DNA of 64,000 nt from Clostridia bacterium (lineage in GTDB: Bacteria; Bacillota; Clostridia; TANB77; CAG-465), in the NCBI GenBank assembly GCA_045652705.1, contig JAZRUV010000008.1, positions 24,620 through 88,619 on the forward strand, read 5' to 3'. Positions 43,959 to 64,000 of this stretch are shown piece by piece. Each line of letters begins with the position of its first letter. The stretch's first letter is position 1. The translations under genes and the position numbers were made by a program. Below the pieces are notes generated by a model. It was not told where the DNA came from, ran no database searches, and saw nothing but the letters and a program-made list of their open reading frames with translations.

Positions 43959-44576
43959 GTGATTTTTATGCTAAAGAAGTGGATTAAAGAGTATATTACT
44001 ATAAATAAAAGGGATATATTGATAGTAGTAGGATTACTTCTTTTGGGGGTTGTCATAGGAATAGGAGTATATGTATTTTCTTCTGAAGAAGTAAAGCAAA
44101 TAGTAATAACAAGTGTTAGACAAGTTTTAGATATTTCTAAAAAGGATACGTATGTAAAAACAAATATAATTAAAAATGGAATAAAAACAAATTTAATAAC
44201 AATATGTTTATTAGCTACACTTTCAGTAATGCTTTTTGGGAAATATGTAATATACTGTTTAACGATTTTAAAGGGTGCTGCGATAGCTGTATATACTCTG
44301 GTCATATTCAATATTTTTGGGGCATTATGGGGTATAGTTGTTACACTTCTTTTAGTAATACTCATAAACATATTATATATACCGGCCTTTATATATCTAG
44401 TAATAAGTTTTTTGGAACTAAACTTTAATATATTTAAGGTAAAGTTAAATGCAAATGGATATGGAGTATATAAATTATTGTTAGCCATTTTTATTTGCTC
44501 AATATTAATGTTTTCGAGTGTAATAGTAGAACAAATTGCCGGTAATGTGGTGCTAAATATATATAGTAAAATGTGA
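43959..44576 (+). CDS. spoIIM: Stage II sporulation protein M
   Basis: ~200-aa polytopic protein. The N-terminus KKWIKEYITINKRDILIVVGLLLLGVVIGI is typical of SpoIIM, and xerD is the expected neighbour. The start is ambiguous (GTG 43959 or ATG 43968). Confidence 0.7.
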   Translation: MIFMLKKWIKEYITINKRDILIVVGLLLLGVVIGIGVYVFSSEEVKQIVITSVRQVLDISKKDTYVKTNIIKNGIKTNLITICLLATLSVMLFGKYVIYCLTILKGAAIAVYTLVIFNIFGALWGIVVTLLLVILINILYIPAFIYLVISFLELNFNIFKVKLNANGYGVYKLLLAIFICSILMFSSVIVEQIAGNVVLNIYSKM

Positions 44577-48205: not shown

Positions 48206-48292
48206 TGGTGGGAAAGACCGGAATCGAACCGGTACGAGTGTTACCTCGCAGGATTTTAAGTCCTGTGCGTCTGCCAGTTCCGCCACTATCCC
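48206..48292 (-). tRNA. tRNA-Leu (anticodon UAA), CCA encoded
   Basis: Reverse complement GGGATAGTGGCGGAACTGGCAGACGCACAGGACTTAAAATCCTGCGAGGTAACACTCGTACCGGTTCGATTCCGGTCTTTCCCACCA. It has a 7-bp acceptor stem (one mismatch), anticodon loop CTTAAAA, a long variable arm and a GGTTCGATTCC T-loop. Confidence 0.93.
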
Positions 48293-48413
48293 GTGCAAGT
48301 AATATATTAACATTTTTTTTGCTTGCTGTCAAGGAGTTTATTAAAAATATTTTTCTTAATTCATATTTTTCTAATAGTTGCCATATATTGTAACAAGGTT
48401 AAGGGGGAAAACT

Positions 48414-49682
48414 ATGCTAAATTTAAGAAAAATATTAGTAGTATTTTTAATAATTATAATGCTATGTAGTGTAATTATGCCAATAAGTATATATGCCATG
48501 CCAGATTTTGCTATAGTTGAAAGCAATAGCGAAAATATTGAGACACAAACTAAAAACTATAAAACAGCAGAGTCTTCTATACAAACAGCAGCAGCGCCTG
48601 CTTTTAATTTTCAGTCAGCTTCCCAAGTGTTGATGGAAGCAACGACAGGTGAAATAATATATGCTAATAACGAAAATGAGAGATTGCTTCCGGCATCTGT
48701 TACTAAAATAATGACACTTCTTTTGGTTATGGAACAAATAGATAACGGGAGTTTAAGATACACAGATACAGTAACTTGCACAAGTAATGCGTCTGGAATG
48801 GGTGGTTCTCAGATTTGGTTTAAAGAAGGAGAGACTTTAACGGTTGATGAAGCTTTAAAATGTATTTGTGTAGTTTCTGCAAATGATGTAAGTGTTGCTA
48901 TGGCTGAACTTGTAGGGGGAAGTCATGAAAATTTTGTAGCTATGATGAATGCTAAGGCAAAAGAACTAGGGATGGAAAACACTAACTTTATGAATGCTCA
49001 CGGAATAGACGAGGAAGGGCATTATACAACAGCTAAAGATATAGCTATAATGTCGCGTGAGTTGATGGTAAGACATCCGGGTATAAAAAAATATACAACA
49101 ATATGGATGGATAGCATAAGAGGCGGAACGTTTGAACTTGCCAATACAAACAAATTATTAAAAACATATAAAGGAATGACTGGGCTAAAAACAGGTTCTA
49201 CGTCGCAGGCGTTGTTTAATTTATCCGCTACAGCGGAAAGAGAAGGTTTGTCTTTGATTGCAGTAGTAATGAAAGCACCAACGAGCAAGGTAAGAAATGA
49301 AGAGATAACAAGCCTTTTAAATTATGGTTTTTCAGCATATACAAGTAGTAAGATAGCAGCAGCAGGAGATGTAGTAGAAAAAATAAAAATAAGTAAGCAT
49401 ATAACGAAAGAGGTAGATGTTGTATTGGAAAAAGATGAGTATTTAATTAGTAAGAAAGGTGAAGCTAAAGAATACACAAAAGTTGTAAAATATAACGATA
49501 ATCTTAAAGCTCCAATAAATAAAAATACACCTATAGGCAAGCTGCAATTTCTAGCCAATGATGGAAGCGTTTTACGAGAAGCTAATCTAATGCTAACAGA
49601 AGATGCGTATAAATCTAACTTGTGGGAATATATAATGCACATTGTAGATCTATTTACTATGAAGGGTATGAAAACAAAGTAG
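48414..49682 (+). CDS. Serine-type D-Ala-D-Ala carboxypeptidase (PBP5/DacB/DacF-like)
   Basis: Signal/TM segment, then SxxK (ASVTKIMT), SxN (VSANDV) and KTG (LKTGST). Start at the ATG at 48414 after AAGGGGG. Confidence 0.88.
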   Translation: MLNLRKILVVFLIIIMLCSVIMPISIYAMPDFAIVESNSENIETQTKNYKTAESSIQTAAAPAFNFQSASQVLMEATTGEIIYANNENERLLPASVTKIMTLLLVMEQIDNGSLRYTDTVTCTSNASGMGGSQIWFKEGETLTVDEALKCICVVSANDVSVAMAELVGGSHENFVAMMNAKAKELGMENTNFMNAHGIDEEGHYTTAKDIAIMSRELMVRHPGIKKYTTIWMDSIRGGTFELANTNKLLKTYKGMTGLKTGSTSQALFNLSATAEREGLSLIAVVMKAPTSKVRNEEITSLLNYGFSAYTSSKIAAAGDVVEKIKISKHITKEVDVVLEKDEYLISKKGEAKEYTKVVKYNDNLKAPINKNTPIGKLQFLANDGSVLREANLMLTEDAYKSNLWEYIMHIVDLFTMKGMKTK

Positions 49683-49848: not shown

Positions 49849-50961
49849 ATGATAGGAATGAATCAAATAAAGAAAAGATTAATTCATGGAATTTTAATAG
49901 GTCTAGCAATAGGATTAGTATTTGTAATTATTACAATTATAATATCTAACAATATTGTTACGGGATATAAGGAAGGAACAAATAAAACATTTTTAGAAAG
50001 GTATACATCTGATGTTGTAACTTTTACAAGGGATGTTGTTCAAGGTGAAACAATTACACCTGACATGCTTCAAACAACTACAATACACATAAATACAGTT
50101 CCAAGTAATGCATATACTTCAGTTGGGGCGGTAGTTGGTCAGGTAGCAAAGTATAACATAGTAAGAAATTCTACAGTTGTGTCTTCTATGGTATCAGATA
50201 AAATAATATCGCAAGATATGAGAATACAAGAAATAAATGCTGTAGTACTTCCAACTGACCTTATGGTAAATGATTTTATAGATATAAGATTAATGTATCC
50301 AAGTGGTGTTGAATATACAGTGCTTGCTCAAAAGCAAGTTACAAAAATAGTTGGAACAACAATATGGATGGATATGTCTGAAGAAGATACACTTATGCTT
50401 AACAGTGCTATAGTAGATTCGTATTTAACAGATGGAACGAAATTATATGCAGTTAGATATACAGATCCAACTACGCAAATAAAATTAGGGGAGTCAGAAG
50501 CAGCTGCAAGTTCTGCTAGACTATGGCTAAAAGACGAAATAGGAAAAAAGTTAGCACAGTTTAATAGTATTGACGAGGTATATGTGACTGAAAACAGACC
50601 TACAGGTAATGTTAATATATATGGTGAGGCTGAAACAACACCTGTAGCTACTGCAAAAGATAAAATAATAGACATGGTAACAGATTATGCTATAGAGTAT
50701 AGATATTATGTTGAGTCGTTCAATAAAACAAAAGTAACATATCAACCTAATGCTCAAGTAATGGCATATATGAAAAATGAGGATAATTATATCGTTGAAA
50801 AAGCTAAAGAAAGATTAAGTGCTACTGCAAGACAAAATATCGAAAGAAACATTGCGTTATTTGAAAATTCAAATGCTGAAGGATATTCAAATGTAGTTTC
50901 AGGAATAAACACATCAATAACTGCACAACAAACTCTAAGAAATCAGGCGTTAGGACAATAA
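49849..50961 (+). CDS. CpaB/RcpC-like pilus assembly protein (TM + SAF-like domain)
   Basis: N-terminal TM helix LIHGILIGLAIGLVFVIITIII. The segment VVTFTRDVVQGETITPDMLQ...VGQVAKYNIVRNSTVVSSMV resembles the SAF/CpaB N-domain. First gene of the locus. Confidence 0.6.
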   Translation: MIGMNQIKKRLIHGILIGLAIGLVFVIITIIISNNIVTGYKEGTNKTFLERYTSDVVTFTRDVVQGETITPDMLQTTTIHINTVPSNAYTSVGAVVGQVAKYNIVRNSTVVSSMVSDKIISQDMRIQEINAVVLPTDLMVNDFIDIRLMYPSGVEYTVLAQKQVTKIVGTTIWMDMSEEDTLMLNSAIVDSYLTDGTKLYAVRYTDPTTQIKLGESEAAASSARLWLKDEIGKKLAQFNSIDEVYVTENRPTGNVNIYGEAETTPVATAKDKIIDMVTDYAIEYRYYVESFNKTKVTYQPNAQVMAYMKNEDNYIVEKAKERLSATARQNIERNIALFENSNAEGYSNVVSGINTSITAQQTLRNQALGQ

Positions 50962-50975
50962 TTTAGGAGGAACAA

Positions 50976-51701
50976 ATGCAAAAGGTAATAGGTTTAGTAG
51001 GATATGTAAACAAAACAGAATATGTTATAAATCTAGCAAAAGTATTATCAATTACAGGCAAATCAGTGCTTGTAATTGATGGTACTGTTGAAGAACGTTT
51101 AAGATATTCTATACCAGCCTTTAATAATTCAGAGAAAGAATATTTAGTACATTTTGATACAGTAGATTACGCACTAGGTTTTAGAAGTATTGAAAGTATA
51201 AAAGAATATATTTGCAAGAAAACATCTAACGCAGATAACTATGATATTATACTAATAGATATAGATAACGTCAGTGCTTACGAAGATTTCAGACAAGAAA
51301 ATTTTTCCAAGACATTCTTTTTCTTAGAATATTTAAATATTTCAATGGCAAAAAATGAAGAGCTTTTAAAAGCAATAGCAAGCTATGAAGCAGTAGATAG
51401 AAAACCGGTCCTTTCAAGGGTGATATTTAAGCAATATGTAACAAGAGCAAGTGAAAAATATTTTGAAAACAAAATATTAAATTTCCCAATAGAGTGGAAT
51501 GAAGTTGCATATGAACTTCCTTATATGGACCAAGATAAAATTGCGGATATAGAATTTGAACAAAGTGGTTATATAGATATGAATAGACACACTAAAGTGT
51601 ACTTAAATTTAGTAACAGATATGGCGTCAGATATAATTGGAGACGTACAAGCAGGAGATATAAGAAAAATGGTTAAAATGTATACAAGGGGGAGAGCGTA
51701 A
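50976..51701 (+). CDS. ParA/MinD-fold protein with a degenerate P-loop (TadZ/CpaE-like candidate 1)
   Basis: KVIGLVGYVNKTEYVINLAKVLSITGKSVLVIDG aligns to kvIav.s.KGGvGKTT...La..g.kVlliD, with GYVNKTE in place of KGGVGKT. DIILIDID is Walker-B-like. Confidence 0.45.
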   Translation: MQKVIGLVGYVNKTEYVINLAKVLSITGKSVLVIDGTVEERLRYSIPAFNNSEKEYLVHFDTVDYALGFRSIESIKEYICKKTSNADNYDIILIDIDNVSAYEDFRQENFSKTFFFLEYLNISMAKNEELLKAIASYEAVDRKPVLSRVIFKQYVTRASEKYFENKILNFPIEWNEVAYELPYMDQDKIADIEFEQSGYIDMNRHTKVYLNLVTDMASDIIGDVQAGDIRKMVKMYTRGRA

Positions 51702-52507
51702 TGCCAAAGATAGTTTTTTGGAGTCCAGTAGCAACTTCCATAGGGCAAACACACGCTAGTGTGGCAGTAAGTACTTTGATGGCAATAGAAGAAGATTTTT
51801 CAAACATTCTTCTACATGGGCATTGGCAAGCCAAGAAAATAGAGAGTTCCTTTACAGATTATGAGTCTTTAAAGGCTCAAAACGTCTTTAACAGTTCTAG
51901 TATGGGTATTACTGCTTTAGCAAGACTTGTAGAGAGCAATAAATTAACGCCTGAGAGTATTAGGAATTATGCAAAACCAGTTTTGAAACAAAGATTGGAT
52001 GTAATGTATGGCACTAACGTTGCAAGTAGAGAACAATTTAGTCAACTTACAAATAGCTTGTCTATGGTTATTGGGAAAGCAAATGAAACTTATGATTTAG
52101 TATGGGTTGACCTTCCTAAAGGAACAGAAAAGACATATATTACAGATGCTTTAGAAAGTGCGGACTATATAGTATGTACTATAAATCAAGAAGAAGTATT
52201 TTTAGAAGAGGCAATAGAAAAATATCTTGCAAATGATATTATAAAAAAGAAACCAAGAATGTTACTTATGTGTAATTATGAACAAAAATCTAAATATAAT
52301 ATACCAAATATTCGCAGAAAATATGGAATAAAAGAAGCGATACACGCAATACCACATAATTACGTGTTTACGGATGCATGTAATGATGGTTCGGTTATAG
52401 ATTTCTTTTATAAAAATATCGCAGCAGATAAAACTGATTATAATGGCGAATTTATACACGAAATAAGAAGTATAACAAAAACAATATTAGATCATGTAAA
52501 AATATAA
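51701..52507 (+). CDS. ParA/MinD-fold protein with a degenerate P-loop (TadZ/CpaE-like candidate 2)
   Basis: KIVFWSPVATSIGQTHASVAVSTLMA has Gln at the Walker-A Lys position. YDLVWVDLPKG is Walker-B-like. TAATG overlap with the previous gene. Confidence 0.45.
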   Translation: MPKIVFWSPVATSIGQTHASVAVSTLMAIEEDFSNILLHGHWQAKKIESSFTDYESLKAQNVFNSSSMGITALARLVESNKLTPESIRNYAKPVLKQRLDVMYGTNVASREQFSQLTNSLSMVIGKANETYDLVWVDLPKGTEKTYITDALESADYIVCTINQEEVFLEEAIEKYLANDIIKKKPRMLLMCNYEQKSKYNIPNIRRKYGIKEAIHAIPHNYVFTDACNDGSVIDFFYKNIAADKTDYNGEFIHEIRSITKTILDHVKI

Positions 52508-52525: not shown

Positions 52526-54418
52526 TTGTCACTATCATTAATATTGAACTTAATATTAACTTTTGTCATATTAGCAATTGTTGTTGCTGGAATATATTAT
52601 GCCGCAACAAGCAAGAAAGACACAGATTCGGTTGATGAAGTTGAGCGTGAAAGACAACGTTATAGTATCAAAGGAATGACCGAATTTATAAAACATGAAT
52701 TTGATGAAATAACAAGAATGAATTTGTATGATCTTGCTCTTTCTGAAGATGAATTTGAAAGAAGAAAGAATACAAAATATGATTTAAAGAAAGCATTAAA
52801 AGGCGCTGGCTATGCTTCAGCAAACGACAAAAAGTATGTAAAAACTTTAATGTTCGACCTTTTAAGAAACCAATATAAAGTAACAGATAGAAACTTAAAT
52901 TATGCTATACCTTTTGATAATAAAGATAAAATGACAGCACAAGATAAGTTTGATATCTTACTTCACATGTATAAGAAAAAATACAAATCAAATGCTTTAA
53001 ATCAAATAATATCTAAATATAGATTAGATGAACCCAAGTTTGAATTTGACTCAGCGGTTCCTTCGTATGTTATAACACCTCAAGAAATTGAGCATATATA
53101 TGAAGAAGAACTAGCAGGAACAATTATAGATTTTGATGATAAACTAGAAATAGTAGTTCAAAGAATATATCAAGGATATAAAGGATTTAGTGTTATAGAT
53201 GATATACGTGACCAAAACATAGATGGTGTTTCAGGAGGAGTATCAGGTATACCACCGAGCTTCTTAGACCAAGTTGGTGATATGGAAGATTACCTTGACC
53301 AAACAGGAAAACTTAACATACCAATGTCTTATGACTCAATATGGATTTTCTATAAAGGTAAATCGATGTACTTATCTTTCCTATCATTTGGTAGTGAAGC
53401 GGAGCTAAGAAGAGTTTGTCAAAACATATACAAATTTAATAATCCTGGACAATTGTCTGAATCTGTTGGTTACAAAATCAACGAAATGAAAGATGGTTCC
53501 AGAATAGTTGTATTAAGACCAAACTTTGCAGAATCGTGGGCGTTCTTCGTAAGAAAATTTGCACCACCAACATTGATAGATACAGAACAATTATTAGTAC
53601 ATAAAAATAAAGAGCCAGTAATAGAGCTATTAAAATATTTAATAAGAGGAGCTCGTGTTACAGCAATAACAGGTGAACAAGGTTGCGGTAAAACTACACT
53701 TCTTATGGCTATAATGAAATATCTTTATCCAACAATAACGATGCGTGTTCAAGAAACTGCATTCGAACTTCACTTAAGAAAAATTTATCCTAGAAACAAC
53801 ATCTTGTCTTTAAGAGAAACCGATACAATAACAGGTCAAGAAGGTCTTGACGTTCAGAAAAAGACAGATGGTGGTGTTAACATCCTAGGAGAGGTTGCAA
53901 CTGATCCGGTTGCAGCTTGGATGATACAAATGGCGCAGGTTGCATCTAAATTTACATTATTTACACACCACGCAAAAACATTCCCTAACCTAATAACTGC
54001 ATTAAGAAACTCACTTTTAAAAATAGGTATGTTCAATAACGAAGATGTTGCAGAAGTACAGGTTGTAAATGTTATAAACTTTGACGTTCACCTAAAAAGA
54101 GGTGTTGACGGAACAAGATATATAGAAAGAATAACTGAATGTGTTCCAAAAGAGAAAGCATTTAAATACCATGAGGGATATAAAACAGCTAAAAGTATGG
54201 AACACAAATGGGAAGCTTTTATGGATAATGCTACCGAATATTTTAGACACATGACTCAAACTTCAAACTATGATTATCATAATATAGTAGAGTTTAAAGA
54301 CGGTGAATATGTATTTGTACATCAACTTTCCGAAGCTAACGTACAAGCTATGCGTGAAAACATGTCTGATGAAGATATCAAAGCTTTTGATAAATTCTTA
54401 GACACGGCTTGGGGGTGA
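52526..54418 (+). CDS. CpaF/TadA-family secretion ATPase with an N-terminal TM anchor
   Basis: Walker A ITGEQGCGKTTLL, RVQETAFEL (Asp-box position), GGVNILGEVAT (Walker B position) and FTHHAKT (His box). The N-terminus LILNLILTFVILAIVVAGIYY is hydrophobic. TTG start after AAGGAGG. Confidence 0.75.
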   Translation: MSLSLILNLILTFVILAIVVAGIYYAATSKKDTDSVDEVERERQRYSIKGMTEFIKHEFDEITRMNLYDLALSEDEFERRKNTKYDLKKALKGAGYASANDKKYVKTLMFDLLRNQYKVTDRNLNYAIPFDNKDKMTAQDKFDILLHMYKKKYKSNALNQIISKYRLDEPKFEFDSAVPSYVITPQEIEHIYEEELAGTIIDFDDKLEIVVQRIYQGYKGFSVIDDIRDQNIDGVSGGVSGIPPSFLDQVGDMEDYLDQTGKLNIPMSYDSIWIFYKGKSMYLSFLSFGSEAELRRVCQNIYKFNNPGQLSESVGYKINEMKDGSRIVVLRPNFAESWAFFVRKFAPPTLIDTEQLLVHKNKEPVIELLKYLIRGARVTAITGEQGCGKTTLLMAIMKYLYPTITMRVQETAFELHLRKIYPRNNILSLRETDTITGQEGLDVQKKTDGGVNILGEVATDPVAAWMIQMAQVASKFTLFTHHAKTFPNLITALRNSLLKIGMFNNEDVAEVQVVNVINFDVHLKRGVDGTRYIERITECVPKEKAFKYHEGYKTAKSMEHKWEAFMDNATEYFRHMTQTSNYDYHNIVEFKDGEYVFVHQLSEANVQAMRENMSDEDIKAFDKFLDTAWG

Positions 54419-54424
54419 GTATAG

Positions 54425-56494
54425 GTGGCAAGTAATATATGGTATATAGTTGGTGGAATGGTAGGATTTGCTTTTATAGGATTACTTGCTGTTATAATAT
54501 ACTACCAAGCTACCAAGAAAAAATATGCGGGTAATAAAAAGCTTTATCAAAAAGATCAAATAGTTGTAAAAAATAAAACAAGTATTAGAGATATTTTTGA
54601 TAGAATTTATCAAGTAGCATATTTAGCGCTTGTAAAAATCCCAATAATAAAACATTATACTAAAAAGACAAGACTTAAACTGGAAATGGTAAATGATTAT
54701 ACAGAGTATGAAATAAGAAAGAAAACAGGTTCAATAATGTTAGGCTCACTCTTATTTATATTTGCCGCGTTATTTGTTTTCTTGAATGTAGTTTCAGATT
54801 TATATATGGCAGCAGTAGTAACTCTGATGGTATTTGTAATAAATGATGTAATGATTAACTCAAGGGTTAATAAGGTTGCAGATAAAATAATGAGACAATT
54901 ACCAGAAGTGTTTACTGAAATAAGACACTCATTCCATGAACATGGTATGATAGAAGAAGCATTCAACGATGCTATTGAGGAACTTGAAGATAAAGAGATA
55001 ATGCCTCAAATAAGAAAAATACGTGATGCAATACTATCAGATAATCCTGAAGTTCAACTTGAAAAATACTATGACACAGCACCAAATAAATTCTTAAAAT
55101 TATTTGCAGGTGTATCTTATCTTACAATGGAACTTGGAGATAGAGAGGTAAATGGAGTGTCGGTATACTTGAAAAACTTAAACAATATATTAAATGATGT
55201 TTACCTTGAAATTCTAAAAAAAGATAAAATAAACTATATGTTTAGAAGCTTAACGGGAATAGCAATAGCACCAATATTCTTCATACAAATAGTAGAAAAT
55301 TGGGCTATATCTAACTTCCCAGCACTTATAAACTTCTATTCAAGTAGTTTTGGATTTATAGTACAAGCAGTACTCATGATATCAATATTCTTGGCATACT
55401 TCTTGCTTAAAGTAATAAGAGAAGATGCAAATGAGATTAAATTTGATAGAATAGTTACTCAAAAGTGGCAAGATAAGGCGTATAAAATACCTTTAGTTAA
55501 ATTTTTAGTAAATGGATTTATGCCAAGAGAACACACTAAAAAATACCAAATGCTTTCTGATAGGATAAAATCTACAAACTCATTCTTAACAATGCCATGG
55601 TTTTATATAAACAAGTTTATGTATGCAATAGTAGCATTTGTAGCGATGTTTGTTCTACTTATAAACATACATCTAATAGATTTAAATAGTATATATAACG
55701 ATATTAGTGAAGAGTTTATAGGGCTTGGAACGTTGTCTGCAGAAGATCAAAAAGCAGCAGAAGCAATGAATGCCAAGGATAAAGAGATTGTAGACAAATT
55801 GAAAGGTGAGCAAAAGGTAACTAAGGAAGATGTAAAAGCAGAATTAGAAAAACAACAAGGCGGTAAAGTTACAGATACGGACGTAGACAGAGTATTTGAA
55901 AAGATAGAAGGAGTTAAAAACAACTTCTTCAAATTTTGGGAAGTAATTATAGCACTTCTTGCAGCTTGGATAGCATACTTTATTCCAAATATAACGTTAT
56001 TTATTAAAAATAAAATAAGGGCTTTGGAAAAAGAAGATGAAGTAATGCAATTCCAGTCAATAATCTTAATGCTTATGTATATAGAGCGTATAGATGTACA
56101 GACAATACTAGAATGGCTTGAAAGATATTCTTATGCATACAAAGAGCCAATAGCAACAGCATTAAACAACTATGAAGCGGGAGCTTTAGAAGCTTTAGAA
56201 GATTTAAAAGATGCTGTACCACAAAAAGATTTTAAGCGTATAGTAGAAGCATTAATATCTGCCGTTGAAAGAATTCCTATTAAGGACGCTTTCGATGAGC
56301 TAGAAACAGAAAGAAGTTTCCAATACGAAAGAAGGAAAGATACCAATGAAAGAATCATACAAAAGAAAACATCTCTTGGAAAAACAATTGGATTTGCTCC
56401 TTTGATAATATTGGTAGCTGGATATTTTGTAGGACCATTGTTACTTGTAAGTATAATGCAACTTATGACTTACTTCAGTACAATGCAATTCTAA
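54425..56494 (+). CDS. Large polytopic membrane protein, candidate fused TadB/TadC-like platform
   Basis: 689 aa with at least 7 hydrophobic segments separated by large soluble helical regions. It directly follows the ATPase. The assignment rests on position and topology only. Confidence 0.45.
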   Translation: MASNIWYIVGGMVGFAFIGLLAVIIYYQATKKKYAGNKKLYQKDQIVVKNKTSIRDIFDRIYQVAYLALVKIPIIKHYTKKTRLKLEMVNDYTEYEIRKKTGSIMLGSLLFIFAALFVFLNVVSDLYMAAVVTLMVFVINDVMINSRVNKVADKIMRQLPEVFTEIRHSFHEHGMIEEAFNDAIEELEDKEIMPQIRKIRDAILSDNPEVQLEKYYDTAPNKFLKLFAGVSYLTMELGDREVNGVSVYLKNLNNILNDVYLEILKKDKINYMFRSLTGIAIAPIFFIQIVENWAISNFPALINFYSSSFGFIVQAVLMISIFLAYFLLKVIREDANEIKFDRIVTQKWQDKAYKIPLVKFLVNGFMPREHTKKYQMLSDRIKSTNSFLTMPWFYINKFMYAIVAFVAMFVLLINIHLIDLNSIYNDISEEFIGLGTLSAEDQKAAEAMNAKDKEIVDKLKGEQKVTKEDVKAELEKQQGGKVTDTDVDRVFEKIEGVKNNFFKFWEVIIALLAAWIAYFIPNITLFIKNKIRALEKEDEVMQFQSIILMLMYIERIDVQTILEWLERYSYAYKEPIATALNNYEAGALEALEDLKDAVPQKDFKRIVEALISAVERIPIKDAFDELETERSFQYERRKDTNERIIQKKTSLGKTIGFAPLIILVAGYFVGPLLLVSIMQLMTYFSTMQF

Positions 56495-56597
56495 ACAAGG
56501 TTAAAACGCATTAGGCGTTTAACATATATAATGGTTATATCACGTAAAGTGAATAACAATATATTATAATATATTATCTATAAAGGAGGTTAAAAAT

Positions 56598-57149
56598 ATG
56601 GATAATGCACAAAAAGCGATTATGATTGGTGTTGGACTTTTCATTACAATCATAATCATATCTGCAGTACTATTAATAACAAACCTAGGTACTGGTTTAA
56701 TAAGTAATGCTCAAGGACAATTGTCTAACATATCTAAATCATTACAAAACCAAGTAACAGCAGCATACGATGGAAAAACTATGACAGGTGCTGATGTTAT
56801 AGCAGCAGTTCAACAATATGAAAATTCTGAAATGTCTGTAACTATAAATAATGGTTCGCAAGATTACTATTCTGGAAAATATAAAGTACCTACAACAAGC
56901 CTTAGAGTAGAAAAAGAATTAGCTGCTGGCGTAACAGACGGTACAGCTATAGGAAGAGCAAGTTCACATCCAGGTGGCGTATATTTTGCTGGAACATTAA
57001 GCGAATTACAATCTTCCGACAAAACTAATGTTACTCAATTACAAGCAACAACTGGTGGTGGAGTAAGTGCTGTAAAAACATACTATAGCTCTATTGTAAA
57101 AGATGCAACAACAGATACAGTTATAGGAATTGTATTTATGCAAAAATAA
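56598..57149 (+). CDS. Candidate major filament subunit (183 aa) with a pilin-like N-terminal helix
   Basis: MDNAQKAIMIGVGLFITIIIISAVLLITNLGTGLISNAQGQ, then a T/S/G-rich globular part. It has the strongest RBS in the locus (AAAGGAGG) and its own terminator. Confidence 0.5.
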   Translation: MDNAQKAIMIGVGLFITIIIISAVLLITNLGTGLISNAQGQLSNISKSLQNQVTAAYDGKTMTGADVIAAVQQYENSEMSVTINNGSQDYYSGKYKVPTTSLRVEKELAAGVTDGTAIGRASSHPGGVYFAGTLSELQSSDKTNVTQLQATTGGGVSAVKTYYSSIVKDATTDTVIGIVFMQK

Positions 57150-57167
57150 TTTAAAAGTCCAAAACTT

Positions 57168-57199
57168 AAAAGGCATATAATTATGTTGTATGCCTTTTT
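57168..57199 (+). terminator. Terminator/attenuator after the candidate major subunit gene
   Basis: aaaaggcata / tatgcctttt 10-bp stem with an 11-nt loop; the T-run is in the 3' arm. Confidence 0.7.
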
Positions 57200-57331
57200 A
57201 AGTCTATTTTAAGATATGTTAAATTTTAGTTAAAAATTACTAATTATTTATATTAAATTAACAAATAAAAGAAGATTTTTGGGATTAGTTATAATCTTTT
57301 TCTACTTGTTAATTTATGAAAGGAGAAAGCT

Positions 57332-57778
57332 ATGGAAGACTTTAGTATTAGGGCGATAGTTATTGGTGTGTCGTTATTTGTAACAATGCTTACACTTACA
57401 GCTATTTTAATGTATTTTAATACCGCTAGAAGTATTGCAGATGAAGTTAATAAAAGAACAGATATAGCTAGCTCTTATGATTATATTATGAATGCTGATG
57501 TTGTTGATGATGAACTTACTGGGGTAGAAGTACGTTCTCTAATACATAAATATGCATCAAGTGACAGAGTAACAATCAATATAACTATAGTTAATAATGG
57601 CGTAAAAAAAGAATATAGAGATATAAATAATTCTTGGCTAAAAAAAATAAATGACAACGCATATTTAATAAGTGAAGTAGAGCTGGATAAGATAAATACA
57701 GCCTCAAAATACAATGTGAATAAAGTGGAAAACCAAGGCAGAACAATCCTAAATATCAATTCAATTGTGGAAGATTAA
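57332..57778 (+). CDS. Pilin-like protein (148 aa)
   Basis: MEDFSIRAIVIGVSLFVTMLTLTAILMYF shares the N-terminal signature A-I-x-I-G-V-x-L-F-x-T. Confidence 0.45.
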   Translation: MEDFSIRAIVIGVSLFVTMLTLTAILMYFNTARSIADEVNKRTDIASSYDYIMNADVVDDELTGVEVRSLIHKYASSDRVTINITIVNNGVKKEYRDINNSWLKKINDNAYLISEVELDKINTASKYNVNKVENQGRTILNINSIVED

Positions 57779-57790
57779 GGTGAGAAACAA

Positions 57791-59614
57791 ATGGAAGACA
57801 ATATACAAACAATTATTGTAGTTATAATATCTGCATTTCTTCTTTTTATATTTCCTGTATATATGGCTTATGAAAAGAAGGATGATATTTCTTACGCTCT
57901 TGCAATGAGATATACTCAAGACTTAGTAGATGAAGTAAGAAGTAAGGGTTATTTAACTAAAAATATGTATGAAGATTATAGGGCAAAGCTAAAGCTTACA
58001 GGTAATACCTATGATATCCAAATGACACACGAATATAACAGATATGACCCTATAACCAATTATTATAAAGTAGAAAATGAACAATATGTACTTGTAAAGA
58101 CAACCACTCACGAGGATAGAAAAATATATGAACATTCAGTATTAGAGGAAGGAATAGAATTAGGAAAGATTAACGAACAGTCCTCAGAAAAAGAGAAACA
58201 ACGTTATTTAGAAAGTGTATATAAACAAAATGGTATAGATAAGGTGGAAGAAACATATCAACTGTCTAAAGAGGTATATACATCAAATCACATAGTAAAT
58301 GTTTTAAACAGTGAAAGAAAATTACAACTTAATTCAACTTCAGATAATGTTAAGTGTAGTGATGTTTATGATGCAGATGATGGTTGTCAATATGCATACA
58401 TTATGAATGTTGACGACAACTTTAATATAACAATAAAAAATACAAATATAACTTTAGCAACAGTAATATACAATATGGTTACAGCAAATACTTTGGATGA
58501 TAACACGAGAATATATGTAAATTATGGTGGAGCAATTCTTGCAAATAAATGGTATGCAAATGTAGATTATGCTAAAATGAAACATGACAGTTTAAGTTTA
58601 AATAAGTTTACAGAAAAGATAATATTTACTCCAGAAAGACATTTTTACATTACAGTAGAAGGGGGGATTTATCCAACAACAAATAAAGCTGAGGATAATT
58701 CTCCAATAATAAATAGTTGTGATGGGCCATATGTATTAGACTTTGATGTAAAACCTCAAGAGGTAACAGAACTTAAAGAAAAGGGCGCAATTAGAACAGC
58801 GGATTATTCTAGATATAACTTTGCTATAGGAAATGATAAACAATATAACAATGAAAGTATGATGTCAGTAAGTGTTGGAATAAATGGTATTTCTTTAATA
58901 GTAAATGAAACAAAAAATTATAGGGTAAACACATCAAGTTTAGTAAATTTACCATCATATCAAAAGAAAATAGAAAAAACTCGTGTTGTCCAAGAAGAAT
59001 ATGTGTATATAGATGAACAAACGGGAGAAGAAAAAATAGGCTTAAGGGATAAGGTAGAAACATATTTTGAATATATTACAGAGCAAAGAAAAATAACGGA
59101 TTATTCTAAATTGGTATTAAATTATGTTTCAAAAGGAAAGATAAAAGTTACTCTTAGTGGAAAAAGTGGTGTGCCAGCTTTTGAAGAAAATATATTGGTT
59201 ATAGATGATAATAATTTGTTACAAGGGCTAAACAATATAGTAATACAAAATCCAATAGTTAATACATATACAGGAAATATAGGACAAGCAAGTAATAAAA
59301 GAGGAACTAACGTAAATTATAGTATAAATGTAACAGACACTACAATAGGAATTACTGCTGGAAAATATGTTTCGGAAGAACTTACAATTCTTTCATATCC
59401 ATTTACTATTAATGACTATGTAAATGTTAGAATAGAATTGGAACAAAATAAAAACAAAAATTATCAAGCAATACTTTTTGTTGATGATGAAAAAGTGGAT
59501 GAGAGTATTGAAATGGAAACACTTCCAAAGATTAGTGTAATAGGAAAAACATTTATAGGAAATGAAGAAAGATTTTTTGATGGGTATTTAAGAAACATAA
59601 AAATGTATAACTAA
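57791..59614 (+). CDS. Large pilin-like protein (607 aa) with a C-terminal LamG/ConA-like tail
   Basis: N-terminus MEDNIQTIIVVIISAFLLFIFPVYMAYEKKDDISY...VDEVRSKGYL...GNTYDIQ is paralogous to the N-terminus of the ORF at 60541. The C-terminal end FIGNEERFFDGYLRNIKMYN matches the LamG-type ending F.G.i..v.iYN. Confidence 0.5.
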   Translation: MEDNIQTIIVVIISAFLLFIFPVYMAYEKKDDISYALAMRYTQDLVDEVRSKGYLTKNMYEDYRAKLKLTGNTYDIQMTHEYNRYDPITNYYKVENEQYVLVKTTTHEDRKIYEHSVLEEGIELGKINEQSSEKEKQRYLESVYKQNGIDKVEETYQLSKEVYTSNHIVNVLNSERKLQLNSTSDNVKCSDVYDADDGCQYAYIMNVDDNFNITIKNTNITLATVIYNMVTANTLDDNTRIYVNYGGAILANKWYANVDYAKMKHDSLSLNKFTEKIIFTPERHFYITVEGGIYPTTNKAEDNSPIINSCDGPYVLDFDVKPQEVTELKEKGAIRTADYSRYNFAIGNDKQYNNESMMSVSVGINGISLIVNETKNYRVNTSSLVNLPSYQKKIEKTRVVQEEYVYIDEQTGEEKIGLRDKVETYFEYITEQRKITDYSKLVLNYVSKGKIKVTLSGKSGVPAFEENILVIDDNNLLQGLNNIVIQNPIVNTYTGNIGQASNKRGTNVNYSINVTDTTIGITAGKYVSEELTILSYPFTINDYVNVRIELEQNKNKNYQAILFVDDEKVDESIEMETLPKISVIGKTFIGNEERFFDGYLRNIKMYN

Positions 59615-59626
59615 GGTGGTGATTTT

Positions 59627-60067
59627 GTGGATGATATTACAACGAGGACAATTGTTATAGCAGTAAATATATTTATAACTATAACAATAGTGTCATTAGT
59701 AATTATAATGTTTTTTCAAATGCAAGAAATATATGGAATAGTCGCAACAACGGACACGTCAATATATAATAAATTTGACGATATATATTCTATGTATCAT
59801 GGAAAAGCTGAAACTGGTGTAGGCCTCTTAAATACACTTAAGAGATACGAGGAGCAACCAGACGATCAAGTTATAATAACTTATGACAATTACCAAGAAA
59901 TAAGAAGCAAATTAGGAGAAAATGAAAGAGAAGTAGTTAAAATTAAAGAATTAATGACAGAAGGAAAAGACTATAATTTTGAAGATAAATACAGTGTCAC
60001 CGTATCTGATGGTGAGGATGGGACTGTAATAATAGATTTTAATAGAACAGTGCAAGTTAAAAAATAG
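59627..60067 (+). CDS. Pilin-like protein (146 aa)
   Basis: MDDITTRTIVIAVNIFITITIVSLVIIMF. GTG start after AAGGTGG. Confidence 0.45.
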   Translation: MDDITTRTIVIAVNIFITITIVSLVIIMFFQMQEIYGIVATTDTSIYNKFDDIYSMYHGKAETGVGLLNTLKRYEEQPDDQVIITYDNYQEIRSKLGENEREVVKIKELMTEGKDYNFEDKYSVTVSDGEDGTVIIDFNRTVQVKK

Positions 60068-60088
60068 GTTTGAAAGGAGTATAAGCAT

Positions 60089-60523
60089 ATGGAGCAATCA
60101 GCATTTGAAGCTGTAATGACAGGTGTAAATGTATTTGTGTTTATTGTTGCACTTTCAGCGGCAATATTATTAATGTCAAATGTAATTGACATGGTTAATT
60201 TTGCAAATGAGAGAGCTATAACTGGTATGAATGGTACTATTGCTGAAAATGTAGGCGTAGTAAATGATAGAATTTATACTGGGGCTCAAATGCTTACATA
60301 TTATAAAAATCAAATGCAGAGACTTGAATCAGAAAGACAACCACTTGACTATGAATTTAATGTCCGATTAACTGAATTGGGAGATGAATATCCACTTGCA
60401 AGTTATGTACAAACAGAGAGTTTAGAAAACTATATAAACGAGGAGTTTATACTAGAGTACAAAGGTGAAATACAAGGTAAAAAAGTATATATATTTGCCT
60501 TAAGACAAGAAAGCGAAGTATAG
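60089..60523 (+). CDS. Pilin-like protein (144 aa)
   Basis: MEQSAFEAVMTGVNVFVFIVALSAAILLM. AAAGGAG RBS. Confidence 0.45.
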   Translation: MEQSAFEAVMTGVNVFVFIVALSAAILLMSNVIDMVNFANERAITGMNGTIAENVGVVNDRIYTGAQMLTYYKNQMQRLESERQPLDYEFNVRLTELGDEYPLASYVQTESLENYINEEFILEYKGEIQGKKVYIFALRQESEV

Positions 60524-60540
60524 AAAGGTAGAGTAAATGA

Positions 60541-63500
60541 ATGAAAGATAATATAAGCATTATATTTACTGCAATTATTGGTACATTTCTTATAGTACTA
60601 TTGCCATTATATAGCATATTAGATAGACAAGATAGCATGTCATATAATGTTGTTCTTACAGAGACTACAAAATTCGTAGATAATATAAGAAATAATGGTT
60701 TTGTGGATAAGGAAGCATATTACAATTATATATCTGCTTTAGCTAGTACTTCAAATACGTATAAAGTTACACTAGAGGCATATAGAAGAAAGCTAATACG
60801 CCAAACGGATGAATACGGTAATATTATTCCGGATCAATATGTAGAACAAATTGAATTATACAACACTAAAGATATCCTAGAGATATTAGAGGAGGAAAAT
60901 AAGCAAAATATAGACAATGCAAATATAAAAAATAATGTATACTTGTTTAACGAAAATGATGAAATATACGTCAAAGTATATAATACAAATATAACAGCTG
61001 GTAGTCTAATATATAATGTTATAGCGGGTGAATCAAATACTAAAATAATAAATGTAAGTTATGGTGGAATAGTAAATAGAGTTAATTGGGAATTATACGA
61101 TAGACTTCAATCAGAAACAAATCAAGTTCCGGAAGTTGTAATGTCAGTACCTGTTAATGGGGTAAATAATACAAACATAAAGAAATTAACAAAAAATGCA
61201 ATATTGGAAGATATAGACTGTTCAATAGAAAATTTAGACGAATATATTGGAGAAGTTAACATTCAAGAATTATGTGGTGACGAAATATATAGTCTAAGTG
61301 GAGAAGATTATACGTATTTGTATGATTTGGCTATAGAAGAGAACAGAACAATAAGAGTAGCATTAGAGTTAAGAAGATTTGATAGTATTAATACTGGAAG
61401 AAATAATGATGGTGAAGATATATACACTAAGATAGAGCAACTTGATAAATCGGATTTTGAAAATTCAAATAGTATTAGATCAAGTGTGGAATCATACATA
61501 ATAAATAATTTTATACGTCTTAACGGAATGTATGCAGACATTGATTTAAAATTAAGACAAGTTGGTGATTATTATGTCTTTGATATCATACTTACCAATG
61601 TAAGAATGTCAGAGCTTGATTATATTTCTAGTTTTGCCAGTATAACTATCTTACCAGGATTAGGTCAAGATAAAGATAATACGTTGTCGCTCGGTAATGA
61701 AACAGTAGAAATTGAATTAACAGATGCTACAGCGGTTAATGCGGTAACTATATCTATGCCACATATTTGGGATAAAATGATAAAAACAAAAAATCCAACA
61801 GATGCTAGAATATTAGATGGTACAGTTTATGCTAATGAAGATATAGCTTTCATTATATCTTATACAGGTATAAATAATCAAACAGATGAAGATATTATAG
61901 AGGCAATTAGGGAAAATCTAAAAATATATATAAATGAAGCTCAGTATTCAAATTTAGAACTGCTTACTGCAAAAGAATTGAATGACAATTATGGTATAAA
62001 TATAATGACTGATTCAGCAGGACATGTAATTGTAAAATTTAGATATACTGAAGCAAATAACAGTAGATATAACTATATAGAGTTATTAGATGGTTGGATA
62101 GCAACTAATATAGAAGATGTTGTAGACGCAGAACAAAATGAAGAATTATTATTATATGCTAATGGCTCGAGAAGTAGTGAATATGCAGTGTTGCTTGATG
62201 ATTTACCACCACTTGAACCTAGTATTGAACTTGAAGGGGTTGTTGGAGATAATGGATGGTTTACATCAAATGTAACGTTGAATTTGATCTCATCTACATC
62301 AGATACTGTAAGAAAGAGTATTGTGGTAGAGGATGATGATGGAAATAAAACAGTTATACAAAACGAACAACTTGGTGGAAGTGGCGTATATAAAAACACA
62401 GTATCTGTTGAAGGAGCAATTACTATAACAGAACAAGAAACAACAAAATTAAACCTTGAAACGGATGGAGTAAGTTATGCTATAGGCAGTGCGTATGATT
62501 ATGTAGGCAATAAGGTTCAAACTAGTAAAAAACAAATAAAAATAGATAAGACAAAACCTACTACACCTAAAATTGTATTATATGGTGATGAAGGTGAAAA
62601 CGGTTGGTATAAATCTAATGTTAAAATAGAAATAACTCCAGGAACTGATTATATAAGTGGAGTAGATAGGACTACATATACAATAGAAGGCGCAAATAAA
62701 TTAGGGGAGACAGAAGGAACTGCTTATACATTAACTAAAGAGGGGACTAGTACCGTAATAGCGACTACTTATGATAAAGCAGGTAATAAAACGGAAACTA
62801 AAGTAGATGTATATATAGATAAAACCATACCACCTGATGCAACAATTACTGTTATAGAAGGTAAGAAAAATAGCCCAGATAATGAATGGTATTGTTCTAA
62901 CGTTAAGTTAAAAATTAATGTAGATGCCACAGATTCAATATCTGGATTGGGAACATCTAGTTATAGAATAACAGGGAGTAGTGAAGTTCCTACAACAAAA
63001 TTTACCGGAGCAGAGAAGGAAATTATAATCGATACAAATGGTACTCATAATGTTACAGTATATACATATACTCAAGCCGGTAATTTTAAGGAAACAAAAT
63101 ATACAGTAAAGATAGATAAAGATGCGCCAAATGCACCAAGTGTGTCAATAAGTGGAACAAATGGGGAAAATGGTTGGCATACTTCTAATGTTGTAGTTAA
63201 TGTACAATCTAATGGAGACGTAGGAACATCTCAAGAAAAAATAATAACATATGAAATAACCAAAGATGGAATAACAGGAAATGAAATACAAATAGCTGGT
63301 GATGGAAAGATTAATTTGAATGAAGAAGGAGAATATTTACTAAAAATATATTCTAGGGATACTGCTTTAAATAAAGTTGTTGTGGAAAGAGCAGTAAAAA
63401 TAGACAAAACAAATCCTATTCCAGCAGATTTTGCAATAACAGGTAATACAGGTATAGATGATTGGTATATTTCTGACGTAAATATATCGTATACCGGCGG

Positions 63501-64000
63501 TATGGATAGTATAAGTGGTGTACAAAGTATTAATTTGTCTCATGACCAAATAACAGAAAATACAATTGGCACAAAAGTTACATTAACAACCAAAGATTTT
63601 GCGGGACATGAAGTAACAAAACAAGTTATTATAAAACTAGATAAATCTGTGCCGACAGCTCCAGTAATAAAATTCAATGTTGAGCCTAGTGGGGATGGAT
63701 TATTTGGGACACTGCTATATAATCAAGATGTGAGTGTAACAGTTATTCCAGGAAGAGATTATTTTATTGAAGGAATAGATAATTTATACAAAACAACTTT
63801 TGAGATTACAGCTGACAGTGGCAATGAAGTTATATTAGCTGAAACAGAGCAAACAAGCTTTGCTATAACACAAGAGGGAATAATTACAATTACTGCGAGG
63901 ACCTATGACAAAGCTGGAAATGTAACTAAAGCATCAAACGTAATTTGGATAAATAAATCTAAGCCGCAGACCCCTAAAATAATTACCATTAATGGAATAA
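60541..64000 (+). CDS. Giant pilin-anchored adhesin-like protein (>1153 aa, 3' end outside the window; not in ORF track)
   Basis: My hand translation from the ATG at 60541 found no in-frame stop through 64000. N-terminus MKDNISIIFTAIIGTFLIVLLPLYSILDRQDSMSY. From about aa 553 there are tandem ~80-104-aa modules with DK(T/S/D)xP linkers. Confidence 0.7.
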   Translation, partial: MKDNISIIFTAIIGTFLIVLLPLYSILDRQDSMSYNVVLTETTKFVDNIRNNGFVDKEAYYNYISALASTSNTYKVTLEAYRRKLIRQTDEYGNIIPDQYVEQIELYNTKDILEILEEENKQNIDNANIKNNVYLFNENDEIYVKVYNTNITAGSLIYNVIAGESNTKIINVSYGGIVNRVNWELYDRLQSETNQVPEVVMSVPVNGVNNTNIKKLTKNAILEDIDCSIENLDEYIGEVNIQELCGDEIYSLSGEDYTYLYDLAIEENRTIRVALELRRFDSINTGRNNDGEDIYTKIEQLDKSDFENSNSIRSSVESYIINNFIRLNGMYADIDLKLRQVGDYYVFDIILTNVRMSELDYISSFASITILPGLGQDKDNTLSLGNETVEIELTDATAVNAVTISMPHIWDKMIKTKNPTDARILDGTVYANEDIAFIISYTGINNQTDEDIIEAIRENLKIYINEAQYSNLELLTAKELNDNYGINIMTDSAGHVIVKFRYTEANNSRYNYIELLDGWIATNIEDVVDAEQNEELLLYANGSRSSEYAVLLDDLPPLEPSIELEGVVGDNGWFTSNVTLNLISSTSDTVRKSIVVEDDDGNKTVIQNEQLGGSGVYKNTVSVEGAITITEQETTKLNLETDGVSYAIGSAYDYVGNKVQTSKKQIKIDKTKPTTPKIVLYGDEGENGWYKSNVKIEITPGTDYISGVDRTTYTIEGANKLGETEGTAYTLTKEGTSTVIATTYDKAGNKTETKVDVYIDKTIPPDATITVIEGKKNSPDNEWYCSNVKLKINVDATDSISGLGTSSYRITGSSEVPTTKFTGAEKEIIIDTNGTHNVTVYTYTQAGNFKETKYTVKIDKDAPNAPSVSISGTNGENGWHTSNVVVNVQSNGDVGTSQEKIITYEITKDGITGNEIQIAGDGKINLNEEGEYLLKIYSRDTALNKVVVERAVKIDKTNPIPADFAITGNTGIDDWYISDVNISYTGGMDSISGVQSINLSHDQITENTIGTKVTLTTKDFAGHEVTKQVIIKLDKSVPTAPVIKFNVEPSGDGLFGTLLYNQDVSVTVIPGRDYFIEGIDNLYKTTFEITADSGNEVILAETEQTSFAITQEGIITITARTYDKAGNVTKASNVIWINKSKPQTPKIITINGI
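62197..64000 (+). repeat. At least 6 tandem Ig-like/beta-sandwich protein modules in the giant ORF
   Basis: Module starts fall at nt 62197, 62545, 62818, 63115, 63403, 63640 and 63952. Shared signature: DKxxP...G..G.NGW(Y/F/H).SNV.......D..SG.....Y.I.G.....(Y)D.AGN. The copies are divergent at the DNA level. Confidence 0.75.

Follow-up and report, generated by a model that had tools for sequence, protein, structure and literature searches.

The 64,000-nucleotide stretch of DNA analysed here (the window), from a Clostridia bacterium, carries a locus that is best read as a very divergent Tad-like filament machine, in which a small pilin-like family with a prepilin-type signal of archaeal flavour is accompanied by large proteins of the tip or base, here called class B; we give this reading a probability of about 0.6. 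Six membrane-anchored proteins are likely the subunits of this uncharacterised machine. The order of 14 genes is conserved in 76 species of gut Clostridia, the major subunit forms more than 590 clusters at 50% identity, and 34 megaplasmids of cultured Bacillota, conjugative pBsph among them, carry the same system. Cultured carriers are L. sphaericus (pBsph/p1593), P. polymyxa M1, A. pseudofirmus OF4 and B. proteoclasticus B316. The features of the locus, in window positions and with N-termini taken from translation, are as follows.

48378..49682, + strand: PBP5/DacB-type D-Ala-D-Ala carboxypeptidase (Pfam Peptidase_S11, E 2e-65).
49849..50961, + strand: SAF-domain CpaB/RcpC-like protein, N-terminally anchored (Pfam SAF, E 2e-7).
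50976..51701, + strand: Z1, a weak ParA/MinD-like protein of uncertain assignment (AAA_31 and CbiA, under cut-off).
51701..52507, + strand: Z2, a TadZ/CpaE-like ParA-family protein with a degenerate P-loop (hhalign).
52526..54418, + strand: TadA/CpaF-like secretion ATPase, with an N-terminal membrane anchor and an N-terminal extension of ~270 aa, both unusual.
54425..56494, + strand: platform protein, 689 aa, polytopic, with two T2SSF-like (TadB/TadC-like) halves (hhalign).
56598..57149, + strand: putative major filament subunit, 183 aa; leader MDNAQKA, invariant hydrophobic helix, hypervariable head and conserved C-terminal strand; N-terminus MDNAQKAIMIGVGLFITIIIISAVLLITNLGTGLISNAQ.
57164..57203, + strand: strong hairpin with a U-run, terminator- or attenuator-like, directly 3' of the major-subunit gene.
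57332..57778, + strand: minor subunit paralogue, 148 aa; leader MEDFSIRA; N-terminus MEDFSIRAIVIGVSLFVT.
57791..59614, + strand: class B protein, 607 aa; MEDNIQ start, Pro-containing membrane helix, conserved juxtamembrane module of ~90 aa and variable C-terminal part; N-terminus MEDNIQTIIVVIISAFLLFIFPVYMAYEKKDDISY.
59627..60067, + strand: minor subunit paralogue, 146 aa; leader MDDITTRT, where orthologues have [KR]-A; N-terminus MDDITTRTIVIAVNIFIT.
60089..60523, + strand: minor subunit paralogue, 144 aa; leader MEQSAFEA, the -2 residue being acidic; N-terminus MEQSAFEAVMTGVNVFVF.
60541..64000, + strand, cut by the window end with the ORF continuing past it: class B paralogue, >1153 aa; MKDNIS start, same N-terminal module, Ig-like repeats; N-terminus MKDNISIIFTAIIGTFLIVLLPLYSILDRQDSMSY.

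The machine genes upstream of the subunits bear out the earlier note, which had placed the six proteins in a Tad-like type IV filament locus. Judged by its closest matches, the ATPase is a divergent member of the TadA/CpaF family: CpaF was the best PDB match (phmmer, E 4e-7 over 265 residues; VirB11 0.15 and archaeal GspE 0.23), TIGR03819 matched at E 5e-6, far under its curated cut-off, and the plasmid orthologues bear TadA/CpaF annotation. Z2 aligned with CpaE/TadZ at 94.7% probability (hhalign, E 5.7e-8, 210 columns), while the alignment of Z1 with CpaE, at a probability of just 1.5%, was not significant. The SAF domain was present in 18 of 20 orthologues of the CpaB/RcpC-like protein, which also matched TIGR03177 (CpaB) at E 2.5e-7, under the curated cut-off. 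The platform protein gave no Pfam or PDB sequence match, profile included; in hhalign, its residues 121–257 aligned with TadB/C at 81% probability (E 1.2e-5) and its C-terminal half at 70% (E 4e-5), and the highest-probability Foldseek matches of a low-confidence model were the cytoplasmic domains of EpsF, OutF and PilC. The scores for the platform and Z1 assignments are moderate or weak. In the proposed mechanism, the membrane-anchored CpaF-like ATPase would drive assembly on the fused two-domain platform, with the TadZ-like and CpaB-like proteins as partners. The carboxypeptidase gene adjoins the locus on its upstream side in 61 of 81 sources (window counted), and its product may remodel the wall for the filament.

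The resemblance to Tad/Flp systems lies in an ATPase nearest to CpaF, a TadZ-like ParA-family protein, a SAF/CpaB-like protein and T2SSF-like platform domains, and in a gene order running from CpaB through TadZ, the ATPase and the platform to the subunits. There are also differences. A single fused platform of 689 aa stands in place of separate TadB and TadC, a membrane anchor and a long N-terminal extension set the ATPase apart, and the subunits are 144–183 aa long with a head domain, whereas the Flp pilin has ~60 aa, the processing site G/xxxxEY (the slash marks the cleavage position here and below) and the Flp motif. Most components are missed by Pfam and NCBIfam models. Within the locus, no Pfam or NCBIfam match to Flp_Fap was obtained, the TadE/Tad Pfam models had no match, and tadV was not found. 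Clostridial tad-like loci without recognisable prepilins have been described as the 'no Flp_2' group (Imam et al. 2011, PMC3244431), and the present locus is like these in being Gram-positive, in having subunits that escape the PilFind motif, and in the distance of the biosynthetic genes from other tad genes. By description, however, those loci have recognisable tadC and tadV, neither of which is found here by standard models.

All N-termini quoted in the earlier note were found by translation and are conserved in the 76 species. Its statement that bacterial prepilin hallmarks are absent also holds, as G-[FM] is absent from all six proteins and their hydrophobic stretches contain no acidic residue. 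The PilFind rule (PMC3244431) asks for [GAS]-x4-[DE] and then 14 uncharged residues close to the N-terminus, a single TM segment and a length of at most 350 aa; the expression [GAS]-x4-[DE] plus 14 uncharged residues matched 0 of ~480 orthologues across eight families. The idea that one signature unites the six proteins stands for the four small ones, but the two large ones belong to a separate paralogous family without a G/A/S site, so that the six really form two classes.

The four small proteins are, on profile alignment, paralogues, one major and three minor, since the major family aligned with the three minor families over residues 2–89 at 98% probability (hhalign, E 1.2e-14). Each has a polar leader of 7–8 residues, a charged residue, a near-invariant Ala and ~22 hydrophobic residues without Glu. 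In the major family, residues 1–30 are invariant at 96–99% and the middle is hypervariable, as measured on full-length representatives of 50%-identity clusters from a library of 1.84 billion proteins, and this is the pattern expected for a major filament subunit. The AF2 model of the major subunit (pLDDT 83) is a 'lollipop', a continuous helix from residue 2 to 57 carrying a small alpha/beta head of one short helix and 4–5 strands. Foldseek comparison of this model with the PDB returned nothing at E <=0.001, neither a pilin nor a solved archaeal pilus, the family profile had no PDB match at E up to 10 (hmmsearch), and profile searches gave no homology of the subunits to archaellins, TadE, TadG or any solved pilin. 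The proteins would represent a new pilin-like family, in which a long N-terminal helix, opening with ~22 hydrophobic residues, leads into a small head domain; the mature protein would retain the hydrophobic helix, which would build the core of the filament. The major-subunit gene carries its own ribosome-binding site and occurs in tandem, in one to four copies, in other species. The hairpin region behind it (57140–57335) has an RNA fold z-score of -3.1; a simple terminator scan did not call the hairpin.

In sequence, the N-termini of the small proteins look like the archaeal rather than the bacterial pilin cleavage site. Archaeal processing sites such as KAIS, RALS and RAVS combine a charged -2 position with G/A/S at -1 and lack Glu at +5, the charged -2 being important in archaea only and Glu+5 being largely bacterial (PMC4371748). 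The corresponding motifs in the present family are KAIM, RAIV and KALY, and so, like the archaeal type IV pilins (Ups, Aap, H. volcanii PilA), it shows a charged -2, Ala at -1, an aliphatic +1 and an H-domain without Glu+5. It differs from them in its bacterial host (Bacillota) and in leaders that are acidic and of fixed length. KA/IM occurs in 82 of 86 major subunits, the other small families having [RK]A/[ILV] and [ED][AS]/, and [K]-A-[IL] is retained by distant plasmid orthologues. Across the three minor families, no column but that of the Ala preceding the hydrophobic stretch reaches >=90% conservation, and leader length is constant at 7–8 residues in the small families. Since single control ORFs often have a small residue behind their last charge (26% G/A/S and 10% Ala among 410), the weight rests on conservation and not on the motif itself.

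The archaeal-style class III signal that had been suggested for the locus was examined by applying to the sequences the FlaFind-type rule described in PMC4371748. Its features are present in the four small families and are lacking in the 146-aa protein of the window, with Thr at -1, and in the two large proteins. The resemblance to archaellin N-termini that the same suggestion drew upon did not prove to be homology, with hhalign probabilities of 0.8% and 1.7% against five PDB archaellin N-termini. The small proteins would be marked by a class III (prepilin-type) signal of archaeal flavour, [KRE]-A/[ILV] without Glu+5. The following observations run against a signal of this kind: the leaders are acidic or neutral and not basic, the 146-aa protein has that Thr instead of Ala, and the P. 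polymyxa orthologue has Lys at +2.

Most likely, the cut after the Ala would be made by an A24-type prepilin peptidase whose gene would lie elsewhere in the genome. No A24 peptidase was found in the 64-kb window, polytopic ORFs included, nor was an ORF with a GxGD-K motif or a conserved polytopic ORF found within 10 kb on either side at 80 related loci (1.5 Mb with the window). PibD, FlaK and EppA were not found near the locus, and the whole plasmid pTHECO01 carries no prepilin peptidase annotation. That no peptidase gene was found in 81 loci or on a complete carrier plasmid is what would be seen if the subunits of the filament or pseudopilus were uncleaved, keeping their conserved leader and being extracted from the membrane by the machine as intact bitopic proteins. 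In the major subunit, the invariance of residues 1–6 (99%) equals that of the helix, which is unexpected if the leader is discarded, and class B proteins, lacking a G/A/S site, share the locus. Nevertheless, we consider non-cleavage unlikely, as ComC/PilD-type peptidases of the host are widespread among Bacillota, the hydrophobic filament core would have to accommodate a charged Asp/Lys leader, and a near-invariant small residue placed exactly where polar residues give way to hydrophobic ones is a cleavage-site hallmark. Moreover, all characterised type IV filament subunits are processed (PMC4371748, PMC3244431), and MSH loci likewise have no peptidase of their own (PMC6668835).

Class B proteins have in common an M-x-D-N start, a helix with Pro and the shared juxtamembrane module, and a third family of them is encoded immediately outside the window. 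Their N-terminal module aligned with TadE and TadG at probabilities of <=0.2% (hhalign). In the paralogue that runs to the window end, the Ig-like repeats carry the motif 'NGWY.SNV' and match Big_13 weakly; its orthologues range from 330 to 1280 aa, and it is probably an adhesin. Within the proposed filament machine, class B proteins would probably be tip or base components bearing adhesin domains.

An adhesin-like Ig-repeat partner of this size sits poorly with the possibility that there is no external pilus, and that the genes specify an envelope-spanning apparatus, including no more than a short pseudopilus, for another process such as mating-pair formation or DNA transfer. The major subunit, with its hypervariable head and its tandem copies, likewise suggests an abundant, exposed surface structure, and in the 76 gut species the locus is chromosomal, at a single conserved site and without transfer genes. 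What speaks for a transfer apparatus is the occurrence of the same locus on the 34 megaplasmids, its neighbourhood on pTHECO01, which includes a coupling protein, relaxase-family genes and a Tcp-like transfer module, and its presence on pBsph, relatives of which conjugate (PMC13239906, PMC4363355). On balance, such an apparatus seems improbable. It is even harder to credit that these are ordinary Sec signal peptides or anchors cut by signal peptidase I past the hydrophobic stretch (e.g., ...ISNA) to release soluble proteins, even though A, S or G often stands ~38 residues in and one C. botulinum plasmid locus has lepB 8 kb downstream, because a discarded peptide would not be the best-conserved part across hundreds of 50%-identity clusters, the -3 residue (N, D, K) violates the AXA rule, AF2 predicts one unbroken helix through the site, and lepB is missing from the remaining loci.

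The plasmid setting of the proposed filament machine recalls the PilV system of R64, in which plasmid-borne type IVb 'thin' pili assist conjugation. In both cases, a type IV filament locus is found on conjugative plasmids beside a separate DNA-transfer module. The R64 pilins, however, belong to the canonical type IVb prepilins and are served by a peptidase of their own. It could be speculated, at low probability, that the locus represents a distinct bacterial lineage of type IV filaments that has kept or regained archaeal traits (the unsplit two-domain platform, and charged -2/Ala -1 without Glu+5), that relies on a non-dedicated peptidase or on no cleavage, and that serves as a mating pilus on conjugative megaplasmids of Bacillota.

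What defines type IV filaments is the pilin signal together with its peptidase, and the present system offers a test of whether Glu+5 and a dedicated peptidase are true requirements in bacteria. The archaeal origin that has been proposed for Tad pili (PMC6668835) is a further question on which it bears. Since its subunits escape every bacterial pilin detector and family model, machines of this kind would be undercounted by current surveys of gut Firmicutes. A role in gut colonisation is suggested by the hypervariability of the major subunit and by its large adhesin-like partners, and carriage by conjugative plasmids points to a possible function in mating; a mating pilus, if it is one, would be without precedent in Gram-positive conjugation. 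Because the system is carried on megaplasmids of cultured Bacillota, experiments are feasible.

The six putative filament proteins are encoded within a locus of twelve genes, all on the + strand, that stretches from 49849 to the end of the window, in chromosomal DNA of low GC content (~30%) from a member of the Clostridia. From the relationships of its proteins, we conclude that this locus probably specifies a type IV filament machine whose ancestry is Tad-like. The features are as follows:

17-40 kb, ribosomal-protein operon
48206-48292, - strand, tRNA-Leu (anticodon TAA)
48378-49682, PBP5/DacB-type D,D-carboxypeptidase gene
49849-50961, + strand, SAF-domain protein
50976-51701, + strand, Z1, small ParA-like protein
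51701-52507, + strand, Z2, small ParA-like protein
52526-54418, + strand, ATPase, 630 aa
54425-56494, + strand, platform, 689-aa polytopic membrane protein
56598-57149, + strand, major subunit, 183 aa
57164-57203, 3' of the major-subunit gene, strong hairpin and U-run found by RNA folding
57332-57778, + strand, subunit p148
57791-59614, + strand, subunit p607
59627-60067, + strand, subunit p146
60089-60523, + strand, subunit p144
60541 across the window end, + strand, subunit pBig, >1153 aa with Ig-like repeats

Genes past the window end were read from orthologous loci, and the order is almost fixed across loci: PBP5, SAF, Z1, Z2, ATPase, platform, major subunit (1-4 copies), p148, p607, p146, p144, pBig, and the two families d416 and d454. 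With one genome scanned per GTDB species, the major-subunit gene turned up in 76 loci, all in uncultured gut Clostridia (human, sheep, buffalo, rabbit, chicken). The PBP5/DacB-type gene lies directly upstream in 61 of 81 sources (the window, and the equivalent position in related loci L001-L079), and the enzyme, instead of being there by chance, may work with the machine in getting through the thick wall. After the locus, ~7 kb downstream of the major gene, 33 species (L024, L031 and 31 other loci) carry a conserved protein of ~920 aa with an ordinary Sec signal peptide, replaced in some loci by a protein of >2000 aa; both may be secreted or surface partners. The tRNA-Leu gene separates two unannotated genes from the PBP5 gene, and the ORFs called over it are spurious. 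Also in the window are tandem paralogous, membrane-anchored proteins of 159 aa (40125-40604 and 40646-41125), with the common motif 'YAYDNS..Y.L.GGAYEE'.

When all locus proteins were scanned against Pfam and NCBIfam, neither the six subunits nor the platform gave a match. The closest solved relatives of the ATPase are CpaF, the Tad ATPase (E 4e-7), with VirB11 (0.15) and archaeal GspE (0.23) far behind. Z2 matched an alignment of TadZ/CpaE from four canonical Tad loci (94.7% probability, E 5.7e-8), Z1 gave no match to the same alignment, and the SAF protein matched CpaB weakly. The platform as a whole had no sequence match, even by profile, and a profile search for distant relatives returned close family members only. 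When the N- and C-terminal halves were aligned separately, both matched one and the same T2SSF core of TadB/TadC (E 1.2e-5 and 4e-5). The AF2 model of the platform is poor (pLDDT 52) because only five distinct homologue clusters were available. The highest-probability Foldseek matches of this model, to EpsF, OutF and PilC (in each case the cytoplasmic domain), are supportive only. TadA/CpaF ATPases are soluble, and the CpaF-like ATPase is unusual among them in having an N-terminal transmembrane segment and a ~270-aa N-terminal region lacking any family match. Compared with Tad systems, the platform appears to be an unsplit, two-domain protein, the ATPase is anchored in the membrane and has a long extension at its N-terminus, and the locus lacks Flp, TadE/G and tadV.

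Relatives of the 183-aa major subunit number >800 among 90%-identity clusters, and an index-free search over 1.84 billion proteins gave 594 representative clusters at 50% identity; none carries a name other than 'hypothetical'. The start M[DE]NAQKAIMIGVGLFITIII is near-invariant among them, even where overall identity falls below 50%, and the mean frequency of the commonest residue declines from 0.99 (residues 1-7) and 0.96 (8-30) to 0.37 (79-158). A confident AlphaFold model (pLDDT 83) shows a helix of residues 2-57 and a small alpha/beta head. A fixed N-terminal helix with a variable, exposed head is what a major filament subunit typically shows. Neither the family profile nor a Foldseek search with this good model found a meaningful match in the PDB. 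The gene is preceded by a gap of 104 nt (56494-56598) with a good ribosome-binding site (AAGGAGG at 56583) and followed by the hairpin, which a simple terminator scan had not called, and so it appears to be tuned on its own and highly expressed. In L005, L018-L021, L029, L032-L034, L050, L054, L063, L064 and L073 it is present in 2-4 tandem copies with the same N-termini and different heads, which suggests antigenic or receptor diversification. The head also occurs outside a pilin-like context, since it forms the C-terminus of longer relatives (260-708 aa; P0121, P0141, P0145, P0146, P0181, P0201 and P0232) whose N-terminal membrane segments are quite unlike that of the major subunit or which have long linkers of low complexity.

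The subunits fall into two classes. Class A comprises the major subunit, p148, p146 and p144, which are paralogues (hhalign 98% probability, E 1.2e-14, residues 2-89, a match that includes a common 'TG.EV...Y' motif after the helix) and begin with a polar or acidic leader of 7-8 residues, a charged residue, Ala, an aliphatic residue and ~22 uncharged residues. The boundary reads KA↓IM (arrow, putative cleavage site) in 82 of 86 major subunits and [RK]A↓[ILV] or [ED][AS]↓ in the minor families, and no column but the Ala reaches >=90% conservation across all three of these; the window's own 146-aa protein has Thr at this position. Class B, p607 and pBig, are paralogous to each other and start differently, with M-x-D-N-[LIV]-[QS], followed by a membrane helix with an invariant Pro, a conserved ~90-aa module (FP[VL]Y..E[KR].DD.SY...GY[IL]...TGN.Y) and variable extensions; no G/A/S site was found in either. 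A Pro-containing helix is also present in the d416 family, encoded just beyond the window in orthologous loci. The two large proteins were considered as TadE/TadG homologues and rejected, as profile comparison showed no relation.

The N-terminal strings quoted in the earlier note are all present in the window as given, and its view that the six proteins lack bacterial prepilin hallmarks is borne out: the PilFind expression, [GAS]-x4-[DE] plus 14 uncharged residues (PMC3244431), matches 0 of about 480 orthologues. The proposal that the N-termini are archaeal-like held in part. In the archaeal literature, G/A/S at -1 is described as general, a charged -2 as counting for archaeal peptidases only and Glu+5 as mainly bacterial, and the sites listed are KAIS, KGIS, RALS, RAVS and DAVS (PMC4371748); by rule, the putative class A sites KAIM, RAIV and KALY fit this description. 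By homology they do not: in profile comparisons with archaellin N-termini taken from the PDB, probabilities were 0.8% and 1.7%, so the small proteins were rejected as archaellin homologues and the likeness noted for the 183-aa protein is generic helix resemblance. As 26% of control proteins also have a small residue at the polar/hydrophobic boundary, the case for a class A signal rests on conservation.

Whether the subunits are cleaved was the other question raised. The near-invariant boundary Ala and the short leader of fixed length favour cleavage. Retention of the leader is kept alive as an alternative, since residues 1-6 are invariant and the leaders acidic, both unusual for a discarded peptide, but that boundary Ala and fixed leader length speak against it. 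Cutting by signal peptidase I beyond the helix is unlikely: no other part of the protein is as conserved as the helix, and residue -3 is at odds with the AXA rule. For the favoured reading, cleavage at the boundary, no A24 prepilin peptidase was found in the window, whose polytopic ORFs are limited to SecY, a six-TM ORF of no known family, DUF805 and the platform; none was found by motif and clustering searches <=10 kb either side of 80 related loci, and the annotation of the whole of plasmid pTHECO01 includes none. Other type IV systems, such as MSH, also borrow their peptidase (PMC6668835). The six-TM ORF (205 aa, 43959-44576), which may resemble SpoIIM, was dropped as a candidate, having no family match and lying 5 kb outside the conserved locus.

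By tblastn with the ATPase core, cultured Bacillota proved to carry the same system on 34 large plasmids (38-71% identity), the hosts being Thermobacillus, Cohnella, Paenibacillus, Lysinibacillus (including pBsph), Alkalihalophilus pseudofirmus OF4, Sporosarcina, Cytobacillus, Butyrivibrio proteoclasticus B316, Clostridium botulinum, C. argentinense and C. beijerinckii. Four plasmid loci were inspected and have the same gene order and kinds of subunit as the gut loci, with major subunits reading ...VVKAIILAV, ...ARKALYMAV, ...ASKALYFGA and ...SSALKVAAG. The major protein is WP_012291814.1 in pBsph and WP_015256743.1 in T. composti. Plasmid loci add DUF5704, SLH and GGDEF/HD genes: after the locus on L081 (pTHECO01), L082 (pPPM1a), L083 (pFI1111E1) and L089 (pBsph), a DUF5704 protein (~1040-1200 aa), an SLH or stalk-domain protein and GGDEF genes each occur in three of the four, and HD-domain genes lie nearby in two, which hints at c-di-GMP control. 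The C. botulinum plasmid locus has genes for a signal peptidase I and a cell-wall hydrolase. On pTHECO01 the locus adjoins a coupling protein and a Tcp-like transfer module, a genome paper on pBsph-like plasmids describes a 'pilus assembly ATPase' beside VirB4, VirB6 and VirD4 homologues (PMC4363355), and such plasmids conjugate (PMC13239906), so the plasmid copies may have a role in mating. Those of gut species lie in the chromosome at one conserved site adjoining the PBP5 gene and lack transfer genes; for them, an adhesive surface fibre is the more likely product.

Literature searches turned up no account of the system or of its families of subunits. The nearest published remark concerns some clostridial tad-like loci without recognisable prepilins, in which tadC and tadV were reported present (PMC3244431). 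We place the system in the type IV filament superfamily. It will be of interest to specialists, and its cultured carriers, such as L. sphaericus 1593 (p1593) and C3-41 (pBsph), P. polymyxa M1 and B. proteoclasticus B316, make direct tests feasible.
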